From Minisyncoccota bacterium (GTDB lineage: Bacteria > Patescibacteriota > Minisyncoccia > Phycocordibacterales > CALRHW01), in contig JAXLZT010000001.1 in NCBI GenBank assembly GCA_046350795.1, forward strand, positions 389,164-453,163: DNA of 64,000 nucleotides, read 5' to 3'. Both the position numbers and the translations under genes were made by a program. Shown here one piece after another: positions 476-63,654 of this stretch. Within the stretch, counting starts at the first letter, position 1. Every line of letters starts with the position of its first letter. The notes under the pieces are model-generated. The model was given only the letters and a program-made list of their open reading frames with translations. It had not been told where the DNA came from and made no database searches.

Positions 476-1777
476 ATGAAAGAAATGAGCAAATTTCAGT
501 TGATATTTATGGGAATTTTTGCAATTTTTATATTTGTTGGCGTGGCCATTTTTGCTCTAGGTAAATTTGGTAATAATCAGACTACTTCTACTGTGGTTGT
601 GTGGGGTTTTTTACCAATGAGTAAATGGAATGAGCTTGCCTCTGGACCAACACTAAGGGGAAATAAGCTTATTAAATTTGAGTATGTTCAAAAGACGGAA
701 GCGGGTTTTGATCAGGATTTGATAGAAGCACTCGCTTCTGGAAAAGGTCCGGATATTTTCTTTTTGACTCAGGATTCTATTTTAAAACATAAGGACAAGA
801 TACTACCGATACCATACAAGACGCTTTCAGAGCGGGATTTTAAAGATGTTTTCGTGCAAGAGGGTGAGCTTTATTTATCAAAAGATGGTGTGCTTGGTTT
901 GCCATTTACTATTGATCCAATGGTGATGTATTGGAATAGAACTATTTTTTCAAATGCAGGGCTTGCTGTGCCACCAAAATATTGGAGTGATTTTTACAAT
1001 CTATCTCAGGTGCTTACTATTAAAGACGGTTCTTTAAACATAAATCAAAGTACTGTAGCTTTGGGTGAATATGCAAATGTGTCACACGCTACAGAGCTTA
1101 TGGGTTTGCTTGTGATGCAAGCTGGTGGAGCAGTGTCTCAAAAAATAGATAATCAAGTAGAGAGCACTCTTTCAAATGATTTTAATGCGCCTATTGCACC
1201 AGCAGTTTCAGCCCTCTCTTTCTTTACTGAATTTGTAAATCCTCTTAAACCTTTTTATTCTTGGAATCGTTCTCTGCCAACATCTAAAAATCATTTTATC
1301 TTTGGAGATCTAGCCGTGTATTTTGGATATGCTTCTGAAGTAGAAGATATTCAAAATAAAAATCCAAATCTTAATTTTGATGTAGCAAAAATTCCTCAAT
1401 CCAAAGATGCTAGTGAGATTATCACTTTTGGAAAAATAAATGGCTTGGCTGTATCAAAAGCTTCCAAAAATCCTAGCGCAGCCATACAAGCCGCATTACT
1501 TTTGGTAAGTAAATCAGTGCTAAGTGAGCTTGGCGTTCTCACAAATCTGCCACCAGTACGCAAAGACATGCTCGCTGTGCGCCCGAGTGATACTTATATG
1601 TCTATATTTTACGATGGCGCAATACAATCTCGTGGTTGGCTTTCTCCTGACAAAAAAGAAGCCGATAAAATTTTTAAAGAAATGATAGAGTCTGTGACTG
1701 GCAACAGACGCACAGTGTCTGATTCTGTAAATCGTGCAGACTCGGAGCTTCAGATTTTATTTAAAAAAATGAAATAA
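476..1777 (+). CDS. N-terminally membrane-anchored extracellular protein, possibly solute-binding-protein-like
   Basis: Single N-terminal TM helix followed by a 400-aa hydrophilic domain. It starts 2 nt after the upstream stop codon. Product assignment is weak. Confidence 0.4.
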   Translation: MKEMSKFQLIFMGIFAIFIFVGVAIFALGKFGNNQTTSTVVVWGFLPMSKWNELASGPTLRGNKLIKFEYVQKTEAGFDQDLIEALASGKGPDIFFLTQDSILKHKDKILPIPYKTLSERDFKDVFVQEGELYLSKDGVLGLPFTIDPMVMYWNRTIFSNAGLAVPPKYWSDFYNLSQVLTIKDGSLNINQSTVALGEYANVSHATELMGLLVMQAGGAVSQKIDNQVESTLSNDFNAPIAPAVSALSFFTEFVNPLKPFYSWNRSLPTSKNHFIFGDLAVYFGYASEVEDIQNKNPNLNFDVAKIPQSKDASEIITFGKINGLAVSKASKNPSAAIQAALLLVSKSVLSELGVLTNLPPVRKDMLAVRPSDTYMSIFYDGAIQSRGWLSPDKKEADKIFKEMIESVTGNRRTVSDSVNRADSELQILFKKMK

Positions 1778-1778
1778 A

Positions 1779-2201
1779 ATGAAATCATCAATTAAAGTTT
1801 TATTAGCGAGTTTTTGTATGGTGCTGATTTTTTCTGCTAGCTTTGCACCGGTTTTTGTGCAGGCAAAAATACTTAGAGGTATCATTCCTTGTGGCAATTC
1901 ATCAAGTGGTGCCACCCCAGGTCAGATAAAAGCAGAAGAATGCAACTTTGGTGATCTACTTGCCCTGGGTCAAAATATTATAAAGACATTAGTTCTTTTA
2001 TCTATACCTATTACGGCTATAGTTTTTTGCTGGGCAGGATTTTTGTATCTATCTTCGGGTGGTGATACAAGTAAAATAAAACAAGCTAAAGAGATTTTTT
2101 GGAAAGTAATGTGGGGATTTATATTCATTCTGACAGCTTGGCTCATAGTATATGCTGCCACATCGCTTTTGGCGCCCGGTTTTAGTTTCTTATTGAAATA
2201 A
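1779..2201 (+). CDS. small membrane protein with C-terminal two-TM module (member 1 of paralogous array; VirB2/TrbC-pilin-like?)
   Basis: Signal peptide. The C-terminus (AIVFCWAGFLY...GG.TS..KQAKEIFWKVMWGFIFILTAW) aligns with the FFWG...WG..LFVMFS.WG family of the next genes. Confidence 0.5.
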   Translation: MKSSIKVLLASFCMVLIFSASFAPVFVQAKILRGIIPCGNSSSGATPGQIKAEECNFGDLLALGQNIIKTLVLLSIPITAIVFCWAGFLYLSSGGDTSKIKQAKEIFWKVMWGFIFILTAWLIVYAATSLLAPGFSFLLK

Positions 2202-2215
2202 TATATAATAAAAAC

Positions 2216-2713
2216 ATGAAATTTTTATTCACAGCACTTTTTACTCTAGCACTATCATCGTTTTTTGTTTTTACTGCGCACGCTCAAATGCTTCCAGAGC
2301 CGATGGATGCTGGTGGAGGTTATAGTGCTGGTGACACATCATTTCCTGGTCCAAATGGCCAGGGCACATCATTTCCTGGTCCAAATGGTCAAGGTTCCTC
2401 TTTTCCAAACCCATTTGGAAATACCAGTAACACAAACAGTCTTTCTGGTTTTGTACAGTTTGCTCTTGAAAAAATAGTTTTGCCTATCGGTGCAGTTGTT
2501 GTCGTGTTTTTTGTAATATACTCCGGATATCTTTTTGTGACGGCAAACGGTAGCGAAGACAAGCTTGAAAAAGCAAAGCACACATTTCTCGGTGTCGTGA
2601 TTGGCGCAGCAATACTTTTAGGATCTTGGACTATAGCTAGTGCAATAAAAGGTACTCTGTGTGAGATTGCGCCAAGTATTCCGGGTTTGTGTGGTGGTAG
2701 CAATAATCTTTAA
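2216..2713 (+). CDS. small membrane protein with SFPGPNGQG repeats plus C-terminal two-TM module (array member 2)
   Basis: Signal peptide. Three tandem 12-aa Gly/Pro repeats are encoded by a 36-bp direct repeat at about 2336-2410. The C-terminal two-TM module is homologous to the neighbouring genes. Confidence 0.5.
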   Translation: MKFLFTALFTLALSSFFVFTAHAQMLPEPMDAGGGYSAGDTSFPGPNGQGTSFPGPNGQGSSFPNPFGNTSNTNSLSGFVQFALEKIVLPIGAVVVVFFVIYSGYLFVTANGSEDKLEKAKHTFLGVVIGAAILLGSWTIASAIKGTLCEIAPSIPGLCGGSNNL

Positions 2714-2724
2714 TAAAAAAATTC

Positions 2725-3024
2725 ATGTGTCCATCCACCCCCAAAACATTTAAAGACGTCATCTGCATCTTTTTGGATTTGTTTAGTTTGATTATCCCGC
2801 TTTTGGCCGGACTGGCTCTTTTGGCTTTCTTTTGGGGTTTAGCAAAATTTATTTACAACGCTGGTAGTGAGTCTGCTCGAGAAGATGCAAAAAATGTAAT
2901 GTTCTGGGGAATTATTGGTCTATTTGTGATGTTTTCTATTTGGGGTATCGTCTCTTTCTTTACCCAAGACTTCTTTGGTGTAAGTTTTACTGGTCTACCA
3001 AGGTTGCCAGTTTTCCAAAATTAA
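2725..3024 (+). CDS. small two-TM protein, FFWG..WG family (array member 3)
   Basis: LLAFFWGLAKF...AREDAKNVMFWGIIGLFVMFSIWG. This is one of six near-collinear paralogs. Confidence 0.55.
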   Translation: MCPSTPKTFKDVICIFLDLFSLIIPLLAGLALLAFFWGLAKFIYNAGSESAREDAKNVMFWGIIGLFVMFSIWGIVSFFTQDFFGVSFTGLPRLPVFQN

Positions 3025-3028
3025 TGTC

Positions 3029-3361
3029 ATGAAGTATTTTTTAGTAATCTTTTCTTTGCTCTTACCGATTTTTGCACACGCTGCTGTTTCAAATGCGCGT
3101 GATCTCATACTAGCCGTCACTTCTTTGATTACTTTGGGTACTCCGATAGTCGCCGGTATTGCCCTCGCTGTTTTCTTCTGGGGTCTTGCTAGATTTATGT
3201 ATCATTCTGACAGCGAGGATTCAAAAGAAGAGGGGAAAAGAATAATGTTTTGGGGGATTATAGCTCTTTTTGTAATGTTTTCTGTGTGGGGTCTGGTCAC
3301 TTTTGTGGCTTCGGGCTTGGGAGTAGACGCCCATCCTGCAAACATGCTTTACGAGTTTTAG
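3029..3361 (+). CDS. small two-TM protein, FFWG..WG family (array member 4)
   Basis: Signal peptide followed by AVFFWGLARF...SKEEGKRIMFWGIIALFVMFSVWG. Confidence 0.55.
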   Translation: MKYFLVIFSLLLPIFAHAAVSNARDLILAVTSLITLGTPIVAGIALAVFFWGLARFMYHSDSEDSKEEGKRIMFWGIIALFVMFSVWGLVTFVASGLGVDAHPANMLYEF

Positions 3362-3454
3362 AGCTATTCACAACAAGCATTGTTTTTGTCTAGCCTTGTA
3401 GTATGATTATTGTATAGTTTTTGGATAATTATTAGTTAAGTAATTTTAAGAAAG

Positions 3455-3802
3455 ATGAAAAAAGTTATATTAGGAGGTGCAATGTTTTTTCTTCCCGCAT
3501 TTGTGTTTGCTGCAGAAGCCCTAAACAATGTTTACGGTATTATTCAGTCTATAGGTCAGATAGTGAGTGCTGTGATTCCAATAGTTTTTGCTCTTATCTT
3601 GGTTTATTTCTTTTGGGGTCTTGCAAGATTTGTCCTCAACTCAGGTGATGAAGACGCTAGAAAAGCGGGCCGTGGAATGATGATCTGGGGTATCGTAGCT
3701 CTTTTCGTAGCTGCTTCTGTGTGGGGTCTTACTGAGTTTATCGGAAAAGCACTTGGTATAAATGATGTTCAGGGTGTTCAGGTTCCTGGTATCTACAACT
3801 AG
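3455..3802 (+). CDS. small two-TM protein, FFWG..WG family (array member 5)
   Basis: Signal peptide followed by VYFFWGLARF...ARKAGRGMMIWGIVALFVAASVWG. There is a promoter-like AT-rich spacer upstream (3362-3454). Confidence 0.55.
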   Translation: MKKVILGGAMFFLPAFVFAAEALNNVYGIIQSIGQIVSAVIPIVFALILVYFFWGLARFVLNSGDEDARKAGRGMMIWGIVALFVAASVWGLTEFIGKALGINDVQGVQVPGIYN

Positions 3803-3814
3803 TAGTTACAATAA

Positions 3815-4078
3815 GTGATGACTATCAATACGCTTCTCAATAAGATTATTTCTGTAATACTCCAACCCATTGTTGTTTTGATGTTTGTGGTGGCTTTGAT
3901 GGTATTTTTCTGGGGAATTGTCCAGTTTATAAACACATCAAACACAGACGACGGTAGGGAAAAGGGGAAAAGAAATATCTTGTGGGGGGTTGTTGGAATG
4001 TTCATAATGTTTTCTGTGTACGGAATCATTCACATCATTTTACAGACGTTTGGCATTCCATCTCCATCGTATCTTTAA
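3815..4078 (+). CDS. small two-TM protein, FFWG..WG family (array member 6)
   Basis: MVFFWGIVQF...GREKGKRNILWGVVGMFIMFSVYG. Confidence 0.55.
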   Translation: MMTINTLLNKIISVILQPIVVLMFVVALMVFFWGIVQFINTSNTDDGREKGKRNILWGVVGMFIMFSVYGIIHIILQTFGIPSPSYL

Positions 4079-4088
4079 AAAATAGAAA

Positions 4089-4115
4089 ATCGCCCTTCTG
4101 GGCGGTTTTTGTTTG
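4089..4115 (+). terminator. intrinsic terminator closing the small-protein array
   Basis: CGCCC-TTCT-GGGCG stem-loop followed by TTTTTGTTTG. Confidence 0.5.
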
Positions 4116-4133
4116 TGTAAATAAGCGTGTCTT

Positions 4134-4174
4134 TTATAAAAGAAAGAAGCGGTAGACCACGTGGGTCCACCGCT
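4134..4174 (-). terminator. GC-clamp hairpin with TCTTTCTTTTAT tail (island-style terminator)
   Basis: AGCGGT...ACCGCT stem with inner GACC/GGTC pairing. On the minus strand it is followed by tctttcttttata. Confidence 0.4.
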
Positions 4175-4193
4175 CCGGATGAGATTGTTCAGC

Positions 4194-4904
4194 TCATCGC
4201 TGTTGTTCGGTCAGGTCACAGATTGCGGTGTACTGAAACACCTTGTTTCCGGACGTCGACGCTGGTCTTGACCGGAAAGCCATTACTGGCCCCGTCAGTT
4301 TCTCTCTTCCGAGATCAATCTGTCGCCCAGGCAGGTGTTTGGCTTTCACCACTCCACCATCGGCTTGCTGGAGCTCTAGGTCGAGCTCCTTGTCTGAAAG
4401 AATGGTTACTTTCTTGACGTTTGATGGCAGGTTTTGCCAATCCGACCACACCCCCGGCTCAGATGTGATCAGCAGGTTTGTCGAGCCAGCAACACTTGTT
4501 GCGATCACTTTCGGCGTTGAAGCCCTTACCACCAGACCGATCACACCAGAAATGGCCACAACAAAAGACGGTACCAAGATGATCAGGATCCACACGATCT
4601 TGAGGATCTTGCCCCAGGACCACTTGCGCGGGTCTGGACGAATCCAGAAGAGGGTGGCGATGAGCAGGATCACTCCACCAATCCATGCCAGGACCGGCCA
4701 CATGGAAGACCAGATGGCATAGAAGTCCGGTGGAGTGACGCTCTTTGAGACGATGCCGACGATGATAAACGTCGCCAGCAGACTGATCATTGTCAAAGCA
4801 TTCTTGGAGAATGCTTGAGTTTTGATCCACTTGGTAGCGACCTTCCTGTTTCGCCAACCAAGAACGACTCGATTGGTCACGTTTTTTCTCAGCCAATTCT
4901 TCAT
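4194..4904 (-). CDS. GC-rich membrane protein (three N-terminal TM helices plus a roughly 110-aa soluble C-terminal domain); possible NfeD-like partner of the adjacent SPFH protein
   Basis: Perfect SD (AAGGAGGTGAA) 2 nt ahead of the ATG at 4904. The composition is GC-rich. The product assignment is inferred only from its adjacency to the SPFH gene. Confidence 0.45.
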   Translation of the reverse strand: MKNWLRKNVTNRVVLGWRNRKVATKWIKTQAFSKNALTMISLLATFIIVGIVSKSVTPPDFYAIWSSMWPVLAWIGGVILLIATLFWIRPDPRKWSWGKILKIVWILIILVPSFVVAISGVIGLVVRASTPKVIATSVAGSTNLLITSEPGVWSDWQNLPSNVKKVTILSDKELDLELQQADGGVVKAKHLPGRQIDLGREKLTGPVMAFRSRPASTSGNKVFQYTAICDLTEQQR

Positions 4905-5039
4905 GGTTCACCTCCTTGGTGAATATGATTTTGTAGGTTTACCCGGAAGTTTACAAGGAACAATTCCTTATGTCCACTGCTTTAATACTAGCACAATTTT
5001 ACTTAAAAGTCAAGCATCTCAAATATGAAAATAATCGTC

Positions 5040-5084
5040 TTTTTAAATGAAAGGGCCGCGCAGCTCTGAAGAATTGCGCGGCCC
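5040..5084 (-). terminator. GC-clamp hairpin terminator downstream of SPFH gene
   Basis: GGGCCGCGCA...TGCGCGGCCC stem followed on the minus strand by TTTCATTTAAAAAG. Confidence 0.5.
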
Positions 5085-5115
5085 GTATTGATTCACACAC
5101 ATCACCTTGCGGTGA

Positions 5116-6300
5116 TTACTTGCCGTCGTTGGAAAGAGGCAATGTCACCCCAGGTACTTGACCAAGGACCAGTGTTCCCTTGACTTGGGAGTACTTGTCT
5201 GCCATGTACATGGCAGCTCCAGCACCATTGCCGGCGGTAGCAATCGCACCATAGCCCTCAGCTTGCGCTTTGAGCATGGCTTCTTCACCCTTTGCCTTGG
5301 CGACCAGATTGGCCTCCTCAACATTGGCCTTGGCTTTACCCTCGGCTTCAATGCCGGGAGCAGCAGCCAACTTCATCTCAGCTTCTTGACGTGCCCGCTG
5401 GATTTCCAGCTGGCCTGCGATGTACTCAGGTGGGGCTTCGATGGCCACAAGTTTGATCTCGACGATCTCTTGTCCCACCGTTTCCATGATACCGGGGTAT
5501 TCTTTGTCCCCGATCACCACCTTTTCGTTGACTGCCATGAGCGCTTGGATGAGTTCTGAGTTAGCCTCAATCCTTCCACCAGACGTTGTCAAACCCTTGA
5601 TGATTGTCTCAAAGGTTCGTCCTTCCTTGCCTGCGTACTGAAGCAGACCAGAAAAGATTGCCACCTTGACCCTGTTGATCCAGTCGCCCGGATTTGATGA
5701 GGTGCCAAAGAGTGTCTTGTGGACGTTTCTCGTTCTCAGCTGTACTGAGAGACGAAACTTCAGCTTGTTCTGTTTGCTGTCTTCCACTCCATCGATCTCC
5801 ATTCCGTACTGGTATGTACAAAAATGGAGTTGGATTTCCTCGGGTTCATGTGGGACGATCTTGTCGCCATCCACTTTTTCCCAAGCAAATTTCCACCTCA
5901 ATGGCTTGAAAATCGGATACCATCCGATCCACTCATAACCGTAGAGGCGGTGGATGAAGCTTCTTTCAAAGTCTCCTGGGAGTACTTCTCCACTGCCACT
6001 TGGACAGAGATGCTCACCCTTTTTCCAGTGAAACATCTTGTGCACGGTGCCACCATGCATGACCACCGCGTCGCAGTTTTCCTGCGCTTTGATGAAGAAT
6101 TTGGTGCCTCCATCAACCTTCGGATCGGCGAGCCGAGCGATGATGACACCGCACACCCACCAAGCCAGAAAGGTCAGACCACCCACCATGGCAATGATGC
6201 CGAGTGTGATGAACGCTGACACCGGTCCAAAGACCAGCCATGACAGGACGAATCCTGCCACGAGGGAGAACCAGAAAGACCAGCTCTTGAGAAAATTCAT
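5116..6300 (-). CDS. SPFH/band-7 (flotillin/YqiK-like) membrane protein, GC-rich
   Basis: Two N-terminal TM helices. The C-terminal region is rich in E/A/K/Q repeats (QLEIQRARQEAEMKLAA...AEGKAKANVEEANLVAKAKGEEAMLKAQAEGY), typical of flotillin-like proteins. SD AAAGGGGTG. Confidence 0.55.
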   Translation of the reverse strand: MNFLKSWSFWFSLVAGFVLSWLVFGPVSAFITLGIIAMVGGLTFLAWWVCGVIIARLADPKVDGGTKFFIKAQENCDAVVMHGGTVHKMFHWKKGEHLCPSGSGEVLPGDFERSFIHRLYGYEWIGWYPIFKPLRWKFAWEKVDGDKIVPHEPEEIQLHFCTYQYGMEIDGVEDSKQNKLKFRLSVQLRTRNVHKTLFGTSSNPGDWINRVKVAIFSGLLQYAGKEGRTFETIIKGLTTSGGRIEANSELIQALMAVNEKVVIGDKEYPGIMETVGQEIVEIKLVAIEAPPEYIAGQLEIQRARQEAEMKLAAAPGIEAEGKAKANVEEANLVAKAKGEEAMLKAQAEGYGAIATAGNGAGAAMYMADKYSQVKGTLVLGQVPGVTLPLSNDGK

Positions 6301-6358
6301 TGCGCACCCCTTTCAAAAGGTGTTAGTTGTTTATCTACCCAGAGGTCAATATCGTGAA

Positions 6359-6375
6359 AGTGGCAACGTGCCACT
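6359..6375. promoter_or_regulatory. perfect palindrome AGTGGCA-ACG-TGCCACT in the 5'UTR of the SPFH gene
   Basis: 7-bp inverted arms lying between a TTGACT/TATACT-like promoter (about 6405-6435, minus strand) and the SD. Confidence 0.3.
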
Positions 6376-6456
6376 TGTGTGTGATTACAAAAAACTCCAC
6401 CCTGATTAGTATAACAAAATACTACAAAAGTCAAGATTAGATAATCTCCACAAAAG

Positions 6457-6541
6457 TGGTGGGCGAGGGGAGAGTCGAACTCCCATGGATTACTCCACTA
6501 GTTCCTAAGACTAGCGCGGCTACCAATTACGCCACTCGCCC
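6457..6541 (-). tRNA. tRNA-Leu (anticodon TAG)
   Basis: Hand-folded cloverleaf. Acceptor GGGCGAG/CTCGCCC, anticodon loop CTTAGGA, long variable arm, T-arm GGGAG-TTCGACT-CTCCC. Confidence 0.8.
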
Positions 6542-6593
6542 AAATTTTTAAAAAATACCTATTGTCGGTCACTGCTTTCTTCGCACAACCGAG

Positions 6594-6666
6594 TCCGCCC
6601 ACCAGGATTCGAACCTGGGACCCACCGCTTAAGAGGCGGTTGCTCTACCAACTGAGCTATGGACGG
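6594..6666 (-). tRNA. tRNA-Lys (anticodon CTT)
   Basis: 73-nt cloverleaf. Acceptor CCGTCCA/TGGGCGG, D-arm GCTC-AGTTGGTA-GAGC, anticodon loop CTCTTAA, T-arm CCAGG-TTCGAAT-CCTGG. Confidence 0.8.
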
Positions 6667-6763
6667 TTATTAAACCTTGGTTTCAAACTACCAAAACAGC
6701 TATGGACGGTTATTAAACCTTGGTTTCAAACTACCAAAACAGCTATGGACGGTTATTAAAAGT
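6658..6763. repeat. 2.4 tandem copies of a 43-bp unit that begins inside the 5' end of tRNA-Lys
   Basis: The unit gctatggacggttattaaaccttggtttcaaactaccaaaaca repeats with exact 43-bp period (tatggacggt at 6658, 6701 and 6744). Confidence 0.85.
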
Positions 6764-6785
6764 ACATTTTATTTAATACCGTATC

Positions 6786-6834
6786 CTACATAAAAGAATA
6801 GAGCCGGGCAAGAACAAGTCGTGCCACAGGCTCT
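6786..6834 (-). terminator. GC-clamp hairpin with ATTCTTTTATG tail
   Basis: AGAGCCGGGCA...TGCCACAGGCTCT stem, downstream of the 83-aa membrane-protein gene. Confidence 0.4.
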
Positions 6835-6865
6835 GGGGTGGGGAGATGGCGACTGTGATGGTGGC

Positions 6866-7117
6866 TCATCCGTGAGCGGTCTGACGCATCAGAAACGCGT
6901 GGTGCTTCTTGGCCAGTATCTCTGACACAACCAGAATGTTCACCGCTGCAATCGTGACGGTCACCAACATGCAAAGCATCGCTGGGAAGATCGGCCAGTA
7001 GAGGAAGTCCTTGGTGGTCTGGTGCTGGTACATGAAGTACACAGCCATGACCGCAACCACCAGGCCGATCAAGTCCGTCAGTATGAGCCACCTGATCTGG
7101 CGGCGCAACTTTTTCAT
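6866..7117 (-). CDS. small GC-rich two-TM membrane protein (83 aa)
   Basis: Two hydrophobic helices. SD AAAGGAA precedes the ATG at 7117. Preferred over the overlapping 128-aa ORF 6786..7172. Confidence 0.45.
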   Translation of the reverse strand: MKKLRRQIRWLILTDLIGLVVAVMAVYFMYQHQTTKDFLYWPIFPAMLCMLVTVTIAAVNILVVSEILAKKHHAFLMRQTAHG

Positions 7118-7261
7118 GCCATTGTTCCTTTTCAGCTAGTGTTTGTCGCATCTCCACGACCGGAACTGTCATTTTTTACGATTATGACAGCACCCACATT
7201 ATCTAGTTTTTTTTGATAAAAGTCAATAAAAGTAATACACATATATCGGATTCTTGTATTG

Positions 7262-7309
7262 GTTGAAAAATAAAATCCGCCGGACACCACGAACGTGGGC
7301 CGGCGGATT
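7262..7309 (-). terminator. hairpin AATCCGCCGG...CCGGCGGATT with T-rich tail on minus strand
   Basis: 10-bp GC-rich stem followed on the minus strand by TTTATTTTTC. Confidence 0.4.
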
Positions 7310-7342
7310 GGCGGAGGTGCGAGTTGGTTTGCAGGGATCGGG

Positions 7343-7678
7343 TCAAACACAAATGACCAAAGTCCTGTTGACGTGAAGTCTGATGTCTGTGATGAGCTCG
7401 TGGTCATCACTGCCGACGAGCGCTTGGATGATCTGCGACAGCTTGTTGAGGATCAGCCCTCGAATCGAGCTTGGCACCTCGGAGATTGCCAAGGTGATCA
7501 TCAAAGCCACCCCCTCCGGAGAGAATTCGTCCCCAGCCTTCTTGAGGAGAAGGTGATTGAATCCTTTCAGGTTTAGGTTGTCGATCGAAAACAGCCGATC
7601 ACACAGCTGGTTGTGTGGTGGGAGGACGATCACCTTCGTCTCACGGCCACACCGATCATTGTTCTCACTTGTCCGCAT
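7343..7678 (-). CDS. GC-rich hypothetical protein (111 aa)
   Basis: ORF with SD-like GAGAGG and its own terminator. A palindromic operator-like site lies upstream. No recognisable domain. Confidence 0.4.
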   Translation of the reverse strand: MRTSENNDRCGRETKVIVLPPHNQLCDRLFSIDNLNLKGFNHLLLKKAGDEFSPEGVALMITLAISEVPSSIRGLILNKLSQIIQALVGSDDHELITDIRLHVNRTLVICV

Positions 7679-7712
7679 CTGCTAGCCTCTCAATGTGCAA
7701 ATTTACCACGAT

Positions 7713-7733
7713 CCTTGTGGTAAAGGGTCGACG
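7713..7733. promoter_or_regulatory. perfect palindrome TTACCAC-GATCCTT-GTGGTAA upstream of the 111-aa gene
   Basis: 7-bp inverted arms located 35-55 nt upstream of the start codon at 7678. Confidence 0.3.
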
Positions 7734-7932
7734 CTCACCTGAGCGCAGACAAGAAAGAAATATATCACGATAAATAGAGTGGGTCAAATAAGAGGGGTGT
7801 GAGTATCTTTTGTTCAAGTTATACTTTGTGTTTTTTTATCCACCACTTTTTTATAGCAGGTAGATATTGTATAGAAATAAAAAATCCTCTTGAGGTTTTT
7901 TAATTTTTTCTTCCATGTTTAAATCCTAAATG

Positions 7933-8016
7933 TGCCCAGGGCGGGAGTCGAACCCACAAGAGCTTTCGCCCACAACATTTTAAGTGTTGCGCGTATACCA
8001 ATTCCGCCACCTAGGC
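7933..8016 (-). tRNA. tRNA-Leu (anticodon TAA)
   Basis: Cloverleaf with acceptor GCCTAGG/CCTGGGC, anticodon loop CTTAAAA, long variable arm, T-arm GTGGG-TTCGACT-CCCGC. Confidence 0.8.
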
Positions 8017-8487
8017 ATTTTTTCTATTTCTTCCACGATGAGTTGTTTTTAGACTATGGCAATTTGGACAAAGAATTCTTAGGTTTTCTAATCTGTTGTC
8101 GTTATGTTTACCATTAATATGATCCAACTCTAGAGGTAATCTACCATCTTCTGACCATTTTGCCCACCCGCATTCTTCACACATAGCTTTCATTAAACCA
8201 TCTCTTAGTAACCTTTTTTTAAGTTTAAAACTCTGATAGGTGCTATTTTTAATAAGGATTTTTTCAATAGGGATTATTGGTTTGCCAATGCCAATCAGTC
8301 CTTTATTCCAGCTTTTTCCTTTAAAATGGTCAATGGGTATTTTGTATAACTCAATGAACTTCTTTATTTGAGAATAATTGCCACCCGCAGGAATAAGCTT
8401 AAGTTTTTTAATGACTTGTCGTGTACTCGTAGAAGAAAGACAGGCCTCTAATAGTTGGGCCTTTGTCCAAGATTTTTTTCTCTCCAT
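8011..8487 (-). CDS. HNH endonuclease
   Basis: C-terminal HNH motif LELDHINGKHNDNRLENLRILCPNCHSLKT. The start was moved to the internal Met (MERKK) because the longer ORF runs through tRNA-Cys. The stop codon overlaps the 5' end of tRNA-Leu(TAA). Confidence 0.6.
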   Translation of the reverse strand: MERKKSWTKAQLLEACLSSTSTRQVIKKLKLIPAGGNYSQIKKFIELYKIPIDHFKGKSWNKGLIGIGKPIIPIEKILIKNSTYQSFKLKKRLLRDGLMKAMCEECGWAKWSEDGRLPLELDHINGKHNDNRLENLRILCPNCHSLKTTHRGRNRKNA

Positions 8488-8547
8488 ATAAAAAAGTATA
8501 CCTACCTGAGATAATGGAAATCTAAAGAAGTTATAGAGAAACACTAG

Positions 8548-8621
8548 AGGCGTAGGTCGGGGTTGAACCGACGTATAGCAGTTTTGCAGACTGCCGCGTT
8601 TACCAACTTCGCCACTACGCC
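8548..8621 (-). tRNA. tRNA-Cys (anticodon GCA)
   Basis: 74-nt cloverleaf. Acceptor GGCGTAG/CTACGCC, anticodon loop CTGCAAA, T-arm GTCGG-TTCAACC-CCGAC. Confidence 0.8.
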
Positions 8622-8651
8622 TTCGTAGAGACACATCCATTTATACCATAT

Positions 8652-44148: not shown

Positions 44149-45393
44149 ATGAAAAAAAATAAAAAAACAATTTCAAAAAAGAAGTCTAAAAAAATTACAA
44201 AAAAATCTGTAAAGAAAGCAAAGCCAGTTAAAGCAAAAAAGGCTAAAAAAGAAAAAGCTGTAAAGAAATCTACAAAAAAAGTCGAATCAAAAGTATCTAC
44301 ATCCAAGAAAAATCAGAAACTAGAAAATGGTGTGAAAACACTTATTTCAAAGGGAAAGGAGCGTGGATTTATTACCTACGACGAAATCCTAAAAGAATTC
44401 CCAACTATCGAGGACGATATACTTTTCCTCGAGGATCTATACCAGCAACTCATGGTGGCTGGCATCGACATACTAGAAGGAGGAGGATTGCTTGATTCGA
44501 AAGATCCAGCAGATGATCCAGCTATAAAAAAATATACATACAACAAGGGCGAGGGCTCACCATATGATTCTATTCAAATGTATTTGAAAGAAATCGGCCA
44601 GTATCCACTCATTTCTGGGGGTCAGGAAAAAGATTTGGCAAAGCGCATTGAAAAAGGGGATCAAGAAGCAAAAAATTTGCTCGCTCGTTCCAATCTCCGC
44701 CTCGTGGTGTCTATTGCAAAAAAATATGTAGGACGAAGTCCGGATCTCACACTTCTTGATTTGATTCAGGAGGGCAATCTCGGTCTCTTTAAAGCTGTAG
44801 ATAAATTTGATTGGACAAAGGGATATAAGTTTTCTACATATGCTACATGGTGGATCAGACAGGCCATCACTCGTGCTCTAGCAGACCAATCTCGTACTAT
44901 TCGTGTACCGGTGCACATGGTGGAAACTATTGCAAAATACAAGCAGGTGGTGCGCCGACTTTCTCAAGATCTTGGCCGTGATCCTTTACCAGAAGAAGTG
45001 GCAATGGAAATGAATCTAGATGTAGATAAAGTTTATAATATTGAAAAAATAGATCAGAGCACCGTGTCTCTTGAAAGTCCGGTGGGGGATGATGGTGACG
45101 ATGGCAAATCAACTCTGGGTGACTTTATCGCTGACGACAAAATCCTTTCTCCAGATCAGGATTCTTCACGACGTATTATTTCAGATCAAGTAAAAGAAAT
45201 TCTAAACGACCTTCCACCAAAAGAGCGAAAAATTCTAGAAATGCGTCACGGGCTCGTGGACGGCATTACTCATACACTTGAGGAAGTAGGTAAAGAGTTT
45301 GGTGTGACTCGTGAGCGTATTCGACAGATTGAAGCAAAGGCGCATGAAAAAATCCGTCAGCATGAAAATATCAATCGATTGAGGAATTATTAA
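44149..45393 (+). CDS. rpoD: primary sigma factor with Lys-rich N-terminal extension
   Basis: Regions 1.2-4 ([27 protein letters not shown], region 4 HTH). Follows dnaG as usual. Confidence 0.9.
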
Positions 45394-46550: not shown

Positions 46551-47468
46551 ATGATCCGTAAAAATGGAAGAGGTGGTGGCACTCAGAGCGATACGTCCGA
46601 ACTGCTTCGATTTTTTTCGGGCAAGATTGAGCAATACCCCATTCTTACAAGAGAGGAGGAGGTGGAGCTTTTCAAGCGTATCGAAGCTGGTGACGTACAG
46701 GCAAGAGAAGACCTGGTGTATTCAAACGTACGCATCGTCATTAAGACGGCCTTCGTGTACTGGAATATATCTAGAAAACGTTATGGGCCAATCCATTTCG
46801 CTCTAGATGATCTGGTCCAGGTGGGGTTCACCGGTCTCTATAGGGCCGTTGAGAAGTTTGACTGGCGACGCGGGAACAAGTTTTCCACATACGTCAGTTG
46901 GTGGATTCGTCAGGCGATTTCGAGGCTGATATGCAATACGGGTAACACAATCAGGTTGCCTGTGAATTTGCAGGCACGTATCTCGAAATATCGGAAGACT
47001 GTCATCCGCCTTACCAAGGAACTAGGCCGTACTCCTCATCTAGTAGAGATAGCTGGGAGGATGAAGCTGAGGGTGGATTGTGTCGAAGAACTGATAGCGA
47101 TTACTCAGATTCAACCCATGTCACTCGACGAGCCGTCTTCACCAGAATCTCCAGACAGCACGCTTTTATCTGTTATACCGACCAAGGGTGTTCAGCCATG
47201 GAGAGATGTTCATAGGCAGAATATTCTGGCGTTTAAACAGGAGAAGATCGAGAGGGTGTTGAAATCTCTCACTTCTCAAGAACGTGATGTCATCACATTG
47301 CGCTTTGGTCTTGATGGGCAGGGTGAGCGCACTCTTGGGGAGGTTGGTAAGTTGTACGGTGTTACTCGAGAGCGGATTAGACAGATAGAGGGCAAGGCAC
47401 TTCTCAAACTTCGCGAACGCCACGAAGAAGATCTCGCCGAACTTCTTTTCGAAATGGGCGACAAATGA
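46551..47468 (+). CDS. second sigma70-family sigma factor (group 2-like, no region 1.1), moderately GC-rich
   Basis: Regions 1.2/2 (QYPILTREEEVELFKRIEAGD, FSTYVSWWIRQAISRLI), 3 and 4 ([19 protein letters not shown]). Perfect SD AAAGGAGGTGA. Upstream inverted repeat ATTGACT-N24-AGTCAAT at 46393-46430. Confidence 0.7.
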   Translation: MIRKNGRGGGTQSDTSELLRFFSGKIEQYPILTREEEVELFKRIEAGDVQAREDLVYSNVRIVIKTAFVYWNISRKRYGPIHFALDDLVQVGFTGLYRAVEKFDWRRGNKFSTYVSWWIRQAISRLICNTGNTIRLPVNLQARISKYRKTVIRLTKELGRTPHLVEIAGRMKLRVDCVEELIAITQIQPMSLDEPSSPESPDSTLLSVIPTKGVQPWRDVHRQNILAFKQEKIERVLKSLTSQERDVITLRFGLDGQGERTLGEVGKLYGVTRERIRQIEGKALLKLRERHEEDLAELLFEMGDK

Positions 47469-61014: not shown

Positions 61015-62226
61015 TTGTACGTCATTATGCTCGCTCAAAAGACTATTGATGAGATCAATCGTAGTCCCCACCTTGCTGTTGTTGGCTTTGTTAGTTGTCT
61101 TGTAGAAGATGCTTTCGGATCACACGTATCTGATGTTCATTTGCAACCCACGGAAACACAAATACGCATTAGATTTAGAGTGGATGGAATTTTACAAGAC
61201 ATTGCTTTTTTGCCGAGGAAATTTTTTCCTGAAGTAGTCTCTCGTATAAAAATAATTTCAAATCTCAGAACAGACGAACACAAAAATCCTCAGGATGGTC
61301 GTTTTCGACATACAGTAGACGGATCTTCTTTTGATGTGCGTGTTTCTTGTGTGCCCACTCATCATGGAGAAAGTATTGTGTTGCGTTTACTTACAAGCAC
61401 ATTTTCCTTGAGTTCACTTTCACATCTCGGTTTTTTACCAGATGATGAGGAAAAAATATTAAATTGTCTTAGAAAACAATCTGGCATGATTTTGATCACG
61501 GGCCCCACTGGTTCAGGTAAAACCACTACACTTTACACTCTTATAAAGCTACTTAATAAATCAGAAAGTTCTATTGTGACAATAGAAGATCCTGTAGAGT
61601 ATTCTGTTGCTGGCATAAAGCAGATACAGACTAATGCGCGTGTAGGTCTGACTTTTGCAAATGGTTTACGTTCTATTCTCCGCCAAGACCCAGACATTAT
61701 TATGGTTGGAGAAATACGAGATATAGAGACTGCTCAGATAGCTGTAAACACAGCTCTGACTGGTCATTTACTTCTTTCTACTTTGCATACCATTGACTCT
61801 GCTTCGGCGATACCGCGATTGGTAGATATGAAAGTAGAGTCTTTTCTGATCGCATCTACTTTACGTCTCGTTATTGCTCAGCGTTTGGTAAGAAAAATTT
61901 GTCAAAATTGTAAAAAATTGCGCGATATTACTTTTATAGAGAAAAATATTTTTTTCCATACATATAAACACAACCTGCAAAATGCGTGGATTGGTCAAGG
62001 ATGTGAAAAATGTAAATTAACAGGATATTTTGGTCGCGTAGTGGTATGTGAGATTTTGTGTATTAACGAAAAAATTTGTGATGCAATCGTTGCGTGTGCT
62101 GGAACAGCAAAAATAAAAAATATTGCTACTGAGTCTGGTATGACTCTACTCATAAAAGACGGCATAAGAAAAATAGAGTCTGGTATCACCACGATAGAAG
62201 AGGTTTTTCGTTGTTTAAATGAATAA
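61015..62226 (+). CDS. pilB: type II/IV secretion ATPase (PilB/GspE-like, short form)
   Basis: Walker A GPTGSGKTTTL, Asp and His boxes, and tetracysteine CQNCKK...CEKCK. Confidence 0.8.
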   Translation: MYVIMLAQKTIDEINRSPHLAVVGFVSCLVEDAFGSHVSDVHLQPTETQIRIRFRVDGILQDIAFLPRKFFPEVVSRIKIISNLRTDEHKNPQDGRFRHTVDGSSFDVRVSCVPTHHGESIVLRLLTSTFSLSSLSHLGFLPDDEEKILNCLRKQSGMILITGPTGSGKTTTLYTLIKLLNKSESSIVTIEDPVEYSVAGIKQIQTNARVGLTFANGLRSILRQDPDIIMVGEIRDIETAQIAVNTALTGHLLLSTLHTIDSASAIPRLVDMKVESFLIASTLRLVIAQRLVRKICQNCKKLRDITFIEKNIFFHTYKHNLQNAWIGQGCEKCKLTGYFGRVVVCEILCINEKICDAIVACAGTAKIKNIATESGMTLLIKDGIRKIESGITTIEEVFRCLNE

Positions 62227-62231
62227 ATTTA

Positions 62232-63305
62232 ATGAATAGTGTCAAAAATATATTTACCAGAAAGATTTCACTTCGTGAGCAAGCATATTTTGCGTCGCGT
62301 TTGGCTTTTTTAGTGGGTGCTGAGATTTCTCTTTTAGATAGTTTACTTATGCTTCGCGATCAATCAAAAAAGAATAAAGAAAAAAAATTGATAAATAAAA
62401 TAATAGACGATGTTTCTCAGGGTAGTTTTCTTTCAAATAGTCTAGAAAAAATAAAGCCCAGATTTAGTCCTCTGGCCATACAGATTATTCGTACTGGAGA
62501 AATGACGGGTACACTAAGTACAAATCTGAAGTATGTTTCTGAGGAGCTTAAAAAGAGACAGATTTTATTTCAAAAAATTATTAGCGCACTTTTTTATCCA
62601 TTTTGTATCGGCCTTTCGACTATAGGAGTGACAAGTATGGTTACTTTGTATATTTTACCAAAAATAATACCAATTTTTTCTAGTCTAAAAGCTAAATTGC
62701 CCACAAGCACCAGAATTCTTATTTCTTTTCATTCTATTGTTACAAGTCATTGGATTTTTATTTTAAGCATCATTTTTATTTTTTCTTTCACTTTTATTAT
62801 TTTATGGAAAAAATATAAAAATTTTAGGATTCGTTGTGAGTACGTGTGTCTAAATGTGCCAATCTTTGGTCAGATGTTTAGATTTTATGAAATTACTCAA
62901 GCTTTTCGTACACTTGGTCTTTTATTAAAAAGTGGCGTGACACTAAAAGATGCTATAAAAAATATTAGTAATGGAAGCGCTTCTGATATTTATAAAAAAG
63001 AGTATTTACTGCTTTCGAAAAGTGTATCTAATGGCTTGCCTACATCACACTTTCTGGCTTATAAAGAAATACTTTTTCCGACAATGGTTAGTCAAATGCT
63101 TTCGGTGGGTGAATCATCTGGTAATTTGATAGAAGTATCTCTTTACATCTCTGAATATTACGAAAGGGAACTTGATGAAATTATAAAAAAGTTAAGCTCA
63201 ATGCTTGAGCCGGTGTTGATGATTATTATGGGGGTGGTTGTGGGTTTTGTGGCTATATCTGTGATTACTCCCATATATCAGATTACGCAAAATATTAAAA
63301 GATAG
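62232..63305 (+). CDS. pilC: type IV pilus/T2SS platform protein (PilC/GspF family)
   Basis: Two GspF-like repeats and three TM helices, immediately downstream of the ATPase. Confidence 0.75.
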   Translation: MNSVKNIFTRKISLREQAYFASRLAFLVGAEISLLDSLLMLRDQSKKNKEKKLINKIIDDVSQGSFLSNSLEKIKPRFSPLAIQIIRTGEMTGTLSTNLKYVSEELKKRQILFQKIISALFYPFCIGLSTIGVTSMVTLYILPKIIPIFSSLKAKLPTSTRILISFHSIVTSHWIFILSIIFIFSFTFIILWKKYKNFRIRCEYVCLNVPIFGQMFRFYEITQAFRTLGLLLKSGVTLKDAIKNISNGSASDIYKKEYLLLSKSVSNGLPTSHFLAYKEILFPTMVSQMLSVGESSGNLIEVSLYISEYYERELDEIIKKLSSMLEPVLMIIMGVVVGFVAISVITPIYQITQNIKR

Positions 63306-63327
63306 ATTCAAAAAATAAAAATATTTT

Positions 63328-63654
63328 ATGATTTTACAAAATCGTCACGGATTTACTTTGATAGAGATTTTATTGGTACTTGGGCTCATGTCTATAGTAT
63401 TGATAATGATTCCTATATTTGATTTGAGTTCATTTAAAAAAGATTCAAAACAAGATGAAATAAATATCTTTATACAAGATTTGCAAAAAGTTAGGAGTGC
63501 TGCGATGAACAATATAAGTGGACAAGATCACGGCGTTTTTGAAAGTCTTACCGGAAATGTGTCACAAGAGAGGGAGATTGTCTTTAAGGATGAGACGAAT
63601 ACTCTTTATAATGCAACCGTTACAATAAACCATGAAGGGGGAATTGATTGGTAA
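63328..63654 (+). CDS. type IV pilin/pseudopilin
   Basis: Class III signal peptide RHG-FTLIEIL with Glu at +5 of the mature hydrophobic segment. Confidence 0.7.
   Translation: MILQNRHGFTLIEILLVLGLMSIVLIMIPIFDLSSFKKDSKQDEINIFIQDLQKVRSAAMNNISGQDHGVFESLTGNVSQEREIVFKDETNTLYNATVTINHEGGIDW

Follow-up and report, generated by a model that had tools for sequence, protein, structure and literature searches.

In the Patescibacteria, a group that accounts for a large part of bacterial diversity and whose studied members mostly live attached to other cells, small pilin-like proteins associated with type IV secretion systems (T4SSs) have been found encoded in tandem series. In Southlakia epibionticum ML1, a member of the Saccharimonadia, six genes of the family PF18895 (SEML1_0014-0019) directly follow a VirB6-like gene (Wang et al., 2023; PMC10633639). 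Transposon sequencing scored SEML1_0017-0019 as essential and the text of that paper calls the pilin series essential. A survey based on PF18895 and PF04956 found VirB4 in 2,417 of 3,035 Patescibacteria assemblies and pilins in 1,948, in 1,135 of which a pilin gene lies near virB4, with about 40% of the pilin genes located away from it (Quinonero-Coronel et al., 2025; PMC12102498). The same authors described 441 arrays of 2-11 pilin genes in 383 assemblies, with an average identity of 25%, suggested that such arrays serve adaptation to different hosts, and stated that the patescibacterial VirB4 derives from the MPF-FATA type of monoderms. A review from 2025 regards the patescibacterial T4SSs as the only ones of Gram-positive type with potential conjugative pili. 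Here we describe a new example of this already known kind of element, an array of six PF18895 genes at positions 1779-4078 (forward strand) of a 64,000-nucleotide (nt) stretch, referred to below as the window, from a Minisyncoccota bacterium (assembly GCA_046350795.1, contig JAXLZT010000001.1, positions 389,164 to 453,163). Identifiers of this metagenome-assembled genome (MAG) do not occur in the supplements of the survey.

We consider it rather probable that the array is a chromosomal operon for six VirB2-like PF18895 pilins, which a VirB4-powered T4SS encoded elsewhere would assemble into one heteromeric surface filament or tube. The assignment to a pilin family speaks for this reading. All six proteins score above the curated gathering score of PF18895 (T4SS_pilin; 26.6 bits), with 27.9-43.8 bits and E values from 2.5e-6 to 2.7e-11, and membership of the family is on this ground firmly indicated for every one of them. 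Homologues are very numerous (46,437 cluster representatives at 50% identity with E <=1e-3, 9,021 with E <=1e-10) and come overwhelmingly from Paceibacterota and other Patescibacteria; those relatives that bear a name belong to Paceibacterota or Zambryskibacteria or are labelled 'pilin'. The protein of gene 3 is identical to MAG protein P0012, annotated as Candidatus Paceibacterota U0522_02175. Outside the Patescibacteria the best curated relative is the pilin-like protein of Mycoplasma integrative and conjugative elements (NF045849; Mbov_0395 / MMCAP2_0565), which all six match over nearly the full 80-residue model (E 2e-7 to 6.5e-3, five of them at E <=1e-4 and gene 1 at 6.5e-3). The scores of 16-30 bits lie below the cut-off of 40 bits, so the pilins are not members of that family. 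The proposal of VirB2/TrbC-like pilins made in the preliminary description is thus borne out as far as the family and the published arrays are concerned.

The same description held that the proteins could equally be holin- or bacteriocin-like, and small membrane proteins of holin, bacteriocin or immunity type, unrelated to secretion, do share the small size, the two transmembrane helices and the charged loop. A match to the lactococcin-A immunity protein was also found among sequences in the PDB, at a non-significant E value of 0.09. A scan against PHROGs returned no holin family, however, with five of the proteins lacking any match and gene 4 matching one family of unknown function at E 0.0099, and Pfam scans found no lysis, endolysin, phage or bacteriocin genes nearby; relatives, too, show no endolysin or bacteriocin gene beside the array. 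With all six proteins passing the curated pilin model and the locus conserved in the core genome of 80 species (see below), a function of this kind is very improbable, and the holin possibility in particular was rejected on the PHROG result and the missing lysis-cassette context.

The number of genes was determined by listing the open reading frames (ORFs), by scanning all six frames of the window for the motif and by searching every window ORF with a family profile, and these approaches agree on six genes, of 140, 165, 99, 110, 115 and 87 amino acids (aa). Public contigs that carry this DNA had their genes called independently, and there the same six appear, with PF18895 precomputed. The profile found no other window ORF, and the FFWG-type motif occurs in all 64 kb only in the four short genes. 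The count of eight paralogues given earlier, six of them short and two extended, is therefore to be corrected to four short proteins and two with N-terminal extensions. The sequence motif quoted there captures the consensus, and a relaxed form of it fits genes 2-6, but in its strict form it matches none of the six. Other elements of that account agree with what was found: the genes are tightly packed, with spacers of 14, 11, 4, 93 and 12 nt from gene 1 to gene 6 (4-93 nt, against the 4-100 nt claimed), a single terminator closes the array, some members have apparent signal peptides, and the SFPGPNGQG repeats are present in gene 2 as a 30-nt unit in 2.0 copies (2335-2394).

The six pilins fall into two deep subtypes. 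Genes 3-6 (subtype B) share the pattern FFWG...WG...(V/I)(W/Y)G in an alignment, are 33-54% identical to each other, with the maximum between genes 3 and 4, and give 55-86 bits among themselves in BLASTP. Genes 1 and 2 (subtype A) are longer and diverged (FCWAGFLY and VIYSGYLF in place of the FFWG pattern) and are related to each other by 31% identity and 35 bits. In the alignment, identities to gene 1 range over 13-26%. All six proteins end in the two hydrophobic segments that form the helical hairpin of PF18895, with a joining loop of about 12 residues of mixed charge. A third, N-terminal segment that ends at a small-x-small site and resembles a signal peptide is present in genes 1, 2, 4 and 5 and lacking in genes 3 and 6, as judged from hydrophobicity, which is a heuristic rather than a trained predictor.

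In these features the array resembles that of Southlakia, which likewise consists of six tandem PF18895 genes for small proteins that are divergent in sequence and conserved in structure, in a monoderm patescibacterial host. It also resembles the arrays of the survey, being tandem and within their range of 2-11 genes, with paralogue identities that match the average of 25% and the maximum of 54% given there. With the canonical pilins VirB2, TrbC and TraA (PF04956), which are known from the solved T-, F- and N-pili, the proteins share the hairpin of two helices around a short polar loop and a similar mature size, about 70-90 residues; four of the six also have a signal-peptide-like segment ahead of the hairpin. 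They differ from these in that no significant direct sequence match was found, that two of the six lack such a segment and that the host is a monoderm. Furthermore, there are six different subunits here, in contrast to the one major pilin of the canonical systems, and they are not known to have a VirB5-like tip protein or to form a pilus. The location is also different. The Southlakia array is situated inside the T4SS cluster after the VirB6-like gene, whereas the array here follows genes for a methyltransferase and a solute-binding protein (SBP), and T4SS genes are missing from at least the 9 kb before it and the 72 kb after it. Compared with what is described for patescibacterial VirB2-like arrays, the locus thus has the tandem PF18895 genes of low identity and does not have the position within or beside a T4SS cluster.

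One genome per GTDB species was scanned for comparison and 80 related loci were returned, all from Paceibacteria-type MAGs. Every one of them contains an array, of six genes in 43 loci, seven in 18 and five in nine, the remainder being mostly cut by contig ends; the size spans 3 to 9 genes with a mode of six. For 449 of 483 pilin members the best match is in another genome instead of in the member's own array. When the 42 six-gene loci were compared position by position, the 6x6 score matrix was dominated by its diagonal at positions 1, 2, 5 and 6 (77, 86, 105 and 91 bits), and each position bears its own conserved signature across the orthologues. Pilins in the last position likewise have their best match in another genome in a pilin that is also last (71 of 81). 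The median identity of the pilins to their orthologues, 40-51%, is equal to that of the flanking methyltransferase, SBP, RbfA and IF2 (42-52%). Two strains of the species differ by seven synonymous and two non-synonymous changes over all six pilin genes, which shows purifying selection on these genes, although nine substitutions from one pair of strains give little power for a ratio of non-synonymous to synonymous rates. The six pilins are therefore old paralogues in a fixed order, and the idea of a diversifying duplication put forward in the preliminary description is not upheld. A near-universal, syntenic and positionally orthologous set of six genes in Paceibacteria-type genomes, remote from virB4, also sets this locus apart from the arrays of the survey.

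These data bear on whether the paralogues are interchangeable variants of a single pilin that are kept for surface variation, either antigenic or in host range. This has been proposed for Bartonella and Anaplasma, and the VirB2 clusters of Bartonella and Anaplasma phagocytophilum are indeed similar in holding several tandem and divergent genes of VirB2 type; for the Patescibacteria the hypothesis was raised by Quinonero-Coronel et al. (2025). The high divergence within the array (identities to gene 1 of 13-26% and a maximum of 54%, reached by genes 3 and 4) and the variation in array size speak for it, as does the less clear-cut orthology of positions 3 and 4, which are less distinct from position 5. 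In Bartonella and Anaplasma, however, the clusters are read as variation of one subunit, whereas the paralogues here keep a fixed order and evolve under purifying selection. Against such variants stand the orthologues that dozens of species have for each position with the order retained, a divergence equal to that of housekeeping neighbours, the only two amino acid changes between strains over six genes, and the constant presence of both subtypes with their different architectures. The essentiality reported for the Southlakia pilin series, for which three of the six genes (SEML1_0017-0019) are each scored essential (Wang et al., 2023), would also be unexpected of redundant variants. We therefore regard surface variation as improbable. 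As the genes are positional orthologues under purifying selection, six distinct roles fit the data better than interchangeable variants do.

The array is embedded in a conserved block of genes. It is preceded on the same strand by the 3' part of a gene for a class I S-adenosylmethionine-dependent methyltransferase (1-474; Pfam Methyltransf_11/31/25), the first gene of the co-oriented block, a homologue of which is found upstream of the array in 52 of the 80 loci. Its stop at position 474 is separated by 1 nt from the start of a gene for a 433-aa membrane-anchored SBP-like protein (476-1777, forward strand; SBP_bac_1 and SBP_bac_8, E ~6e-17). This protein has an N-terminal hydrophobic anchor and, among solved structures, is closest to sugar-binding SBPs (4r9f, E 8e-10). 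The stop of its gene at 1777 and the ATG of pilin gene 1 at 1779 are in turn 1 nt apart. In 56 of the 80 loci the SBP gene directly precedes the array on the same strand, and 74 contain a homologue. Pfam scans of the window and the upstream flank found no permease of an ATP-binding cassette transporter near it. Such an orphan SBP might serve the pilin structure as adhesin or receptor, or be a mere syntenic neighbour. Across the loci the order is S1 protein, beta-lactamase fold protein, GyrA (in 70 loci), methyltransferase, SBP, pilin array, RbfA and initiation factor 2 (IF-2), and the 9 kb upstream of the window encode a peptidase S51, an amine oxidase, an S1 protein, a protein of metallo-beta-lactamase fold and GyrA. 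The remainder of the window is housekeeping chromosome, with IF-2, RbfA, ClpB, DnaE, SMC, RNase R, RpoB/C, DnaG, sigma factors and tRNA synthetases among others. In the Paceibacteria-type species sampled the array thus appears to be a conserved core-genome operon that is detached from T4SS genes.

Pilin modules are also found joined in nature. Single table-11 ORFs with 2 to 8 modules exist, and some of the short ones join modules of the position-5 and position-6 types; modules are thus shown to be able to function next to one another in the same topology. The long fusions are repeats of a subtype related to genes 1-2 and do not contain one module per position. Since the six-module proteins are subtype-A-like repeats, they are no proof of a 1:1:1:1:1:1 complex. 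Multi-module proteins include P0145, P0188, P0190 and P0001, and a further such ORF is recorded at L089:76-1743, on a JGI 3300022665 contig; a verified ORF of 555 aa has six modules, and one protein of 820 aa has eight. The possibility that multi-module ORFs are read-through artefacts of another genetic code was rejected for P0145, which is an uninterrupted ORF in translation table 11.

From these observations a mechanism can be proposed for the six-pilin operon. Genes 1-4 would probably be co-transcribed with the upstream methyltransferase and sugar-type SBP genes, and genes 5-6 would probably be served in addition by an internal promoter. The signal peptides of genes 1, 2, 4 and 5 would be of Sec type and membrane insertion Sec-dependent, leaving hairpins in the cytoplasmic membrane that have both termini outside the cell and the loop inside. 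Extraction and polymerisation of the pilins would then fall to a VirB4-type T4SS with genes in another part of the genome, giving a heteromeric surface filament or conduit directed toward the host cell, for contact or exchange, in which each paralogue would have its own non-redundant role. A bolder version, which we offer tentatively as a possibility, is that the six are obligate and non-interchangeable subunits of one filament or nanotube; that the set is old enough to be common to Paceibacteria and Saccharimonadia, as proposed because both have six genes; and that in the lineage studied here it has become a stand-alone core operon, co-expressed with a membrane-anchored, glycan-binding SBP as adhesin or cargo receptor. 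If correct, this would be a multi-subunit pilus of conjugative type, whereas every characterised T4SS has a pilus of a single pilin. The T4SS with its pilin series is among the few systems shown to be essential for the attached lifestyle. In a whole class the pilins would form a fixed six-member core operon, apart from the secretion genes and coupled to a sugar-binding surface protein, and these three features argue for a heteromeric structure with defined roles over surface variation. Predictions that follow are that gene 5 encodes the major subunit, that an internal promoter lies before gene 5 and that subunit 1 carries disulfide-bonded N-terminal domains.

The uneven orthology of positions 3 and 4 is one of several observations that weigh against a T4SS-assembled filament of six pilins. 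In the PF04956 model for TrbC/VirB2, gene 2 reaches 25.2 bits (E 2e-5), below the gathering score of 27.9 bits, gene 6 reaches only 12 bits, and genes 1, 3, 4 and 5 have no match. Alignment by hhalign of a 58-sequence family profile with the verified sequence of Agrobacterium tumefaciens VirB2 gave a probability of 0.1, in a comparison that has low power with a single sequence as target. The best solved pilin among PDB sequences searched with the family profile was TraM of pKM101 (8cw4), at an E value of only 0.12, and fold searches returned generic helical hairpins that do not discriminate. Homology to canonical VirB2 is consequently plausible from the sequences rather than demonstrated. T4SS genes were also not found near the array. 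The sequence viewed comprised the window and public contigs that reach 9 kb upstream and 10 kb downstream of it, and Pfam scans, which in the window covered essentially all ORFs of at least 100 aa, detected no VirB4, VirB6 or VirD4 from about -9 kb to +72 kb of the array. In the 80 loci, the large ORFs (450 aa or longer) up to 10 kb from the array likewise included no VirB4-like protein, so that the arrays of this clade lack physical linkage to a T4SS. With regard to the literature, a perspective from 2024 describes the role of the T4SS as unknown, as cited reviews do for the Saccharibacteria, and no pilus built of PF18895 proteins is known to have been visualised in any organism.

The separation from VirB4 throughout the clade, together with the lack of a pilus seen for any member of PF18895, raises the alternative that the proteins form a membrane-resident assembly independent of a T4SS, such as a heteromeric channel of small size or a complex that organises the membrane together with the co-transcribed SBP, and are pilins by homology only. 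The tight coupling to an orphan, membrane-anchored SBP of sugar type in 56-74 of the 80 loci is consistent with this, and the single polypeptides of six to eight modules, with their 12-16 transmembrane helices, resemble an integral membrane protein more than a polymerising subunit. In the Saccharimonadia, however, PF18895 genes lie inside the T4SS cluster after VirB6 and are essential together with it, as reported by Wang et al. (2023), and the surveyed genomes more often than not have a pilin gene near virB4 (1,135 of the 1,948 assemblies with pilins). The adjacency of the SBP may moreover reflect synteny instead of function, because the whole region from gyrA to infB is syntenic. A membrane complex of this kind is thus unlikely in our view, and a heteromeric filament assembled by a distant T4SS is kept as the preferred reading.

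The individual genes, all on the forward strand, differ in their features. Gene 1 (1779-2201; 140 aa, subtype A; PF18895 E 1.8e-7, 31.5 bits) has three hydrophobic segments and encodes a predicted signal peptide, a Cys-containing N-terminal extension and a diverged two-helix module. Two Cys residues in the extension are conserved in at least 90% of the position-1 orthologues, and all 42 have at least two Cys. In gene 2 (2216-2713; 165 aa, subtype A; PF18895 E 2.5e-6, in addition to the PF04956 TrbC match given above) the predicted signal peptide is followed by an extension rich in Gly, Pro and Asn, which holds the two copies of the 30-nt repeat, and an NPF motif is conserved among its orthologues. 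Gene 3 (2725-3024; 99 aa; PF18895 E 8.5e-11) is of the FFWG-type subtype B with two hydrophobic segments, and gene 4 (3029-3361; 110 aa; E 2.7e-11) combines a predicted signal peptide with subtype B. The AlphaFold2 model of gene 4 has a mean predicted local distance difference test (pLDDT) score of 82, with a signal helix at residues 2-17 and a helical hairpin at 23-58 / 63-96, across which the pLDDT is about 90. Gene 5 (3455-3802; 115 aa; E 3.4e-10) is likewise of subtype B with a predicted signal peptide, and its orthologues keep the MKK start and an AFAQ motif of the cleavage type; the 105 bits of this position are the top cross-genome score. Gene 6 (3815-4078; E 2.3e-8) encodes 87 aa from a GTG at 3815 or 86 aa from an ATG at 3818, and all 42 of its orthologues have exactly two hydrophobic segments and no signal peptide.

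The widest spacer of the array, 93 nt at 3362-3454 (forward strand), separates genes 4 and 5 and contains the -10-like hexamers TATGAT (3402-3407) and TATAGT (3413-3418). Such a gap is conserved: among the 42 six-gene loci, the spacer upstream of the penultimate gene measures 104 nt at the median (interquartile range 91-123 nt). A -10-like hexamer 35-80 nt upstream of the gene-5 start was found in 48 of 67 loci, as compared with 29.9 +/- 4.1 in shuffled sequences, so that an internal promoter for genes 5-6 probably lies in this conserved gap. Gene 5 would be the best candidate for the major subunit, because it occupies the most conserved position and has promoter-like signals of its own upstream. 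Downstream of gene 6 the operon is closed by a terminator-like hairpin (4085-4110), which with its T run extends over 4085-4116 on the forward strand and has an 11-bp stem with five G-C pairs (GAAAATCGCCCTTCTGGGCGGTTTTT) followed by GTTTGT.

A different hairpin, small and conserved (ATACC-N3-7-GGTAT), often followed by ATTAAAA, was noticed 37-71 nt upstream of the start of the fifth gene in 14 of 67 loci, which include L019, L021, L024, L030, L032, L040, L046, L048, L049, L052 and L055-L057. It is absent in that form from the window and may be an element of the 5' untranslated region.

Upstream of the array, synonymous divergence within the block peaks in the methyltransferase gene (pS 0.106). 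Beyond it strains of the same species differ in gene content, with GyrA in L004/L005 and, in L001/L002, a 258-aa protein with a faint HTH_IclR match and an ORF of 117-128 aa.

Downstream of the array, the segment at 4100-8000 has a GC content of 0.48-0.50, compared with about 0.38 elsewhere, and is bounded at its end by clustered tRNA genes (Leu, Lys, Leu, Cys; 6457-8621). Its two large reverse-strand ORFs at 4194-4904 (236 aa) and 5116-6300 (394 aa) have no match in Pfam, NCBIfam or PHROGs and almost no counterpart in the 80 loci. It looks like a species-specific and possibly acquired insert beside tRNA genes. An ORF with an HNH endonuclease domain at 8011-8640 (reverse strand) overlaps tRNA-Leu (7932-8016) and tRNA-Cys (8547-8621). 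Probably the gene really starts at a more downstream position, or part of the ORF is spurious.

Further along the window, two neighbouring genes of the sigma-70 family are found at 44149-45393 and 46551-47468, one full-length with region 1.1 and the other shorter. A type IV pilus operon, a surface filament machine separate from the T4SS, is present at 61015-63654 and at L086:3418-5946, and encodes a PilB-like ATPase, a PilC-like platform protein and several pilins with the N-methyl motif, together with a 486-aa protein without a Pfam match. Lastly, a related MAG encodes on the reverse strand (L029:13-2829) a 939-aa protein with the shoulder and repeat domains of the Major Vault Protein and an SPFH signal, which is unusual in bacteria.

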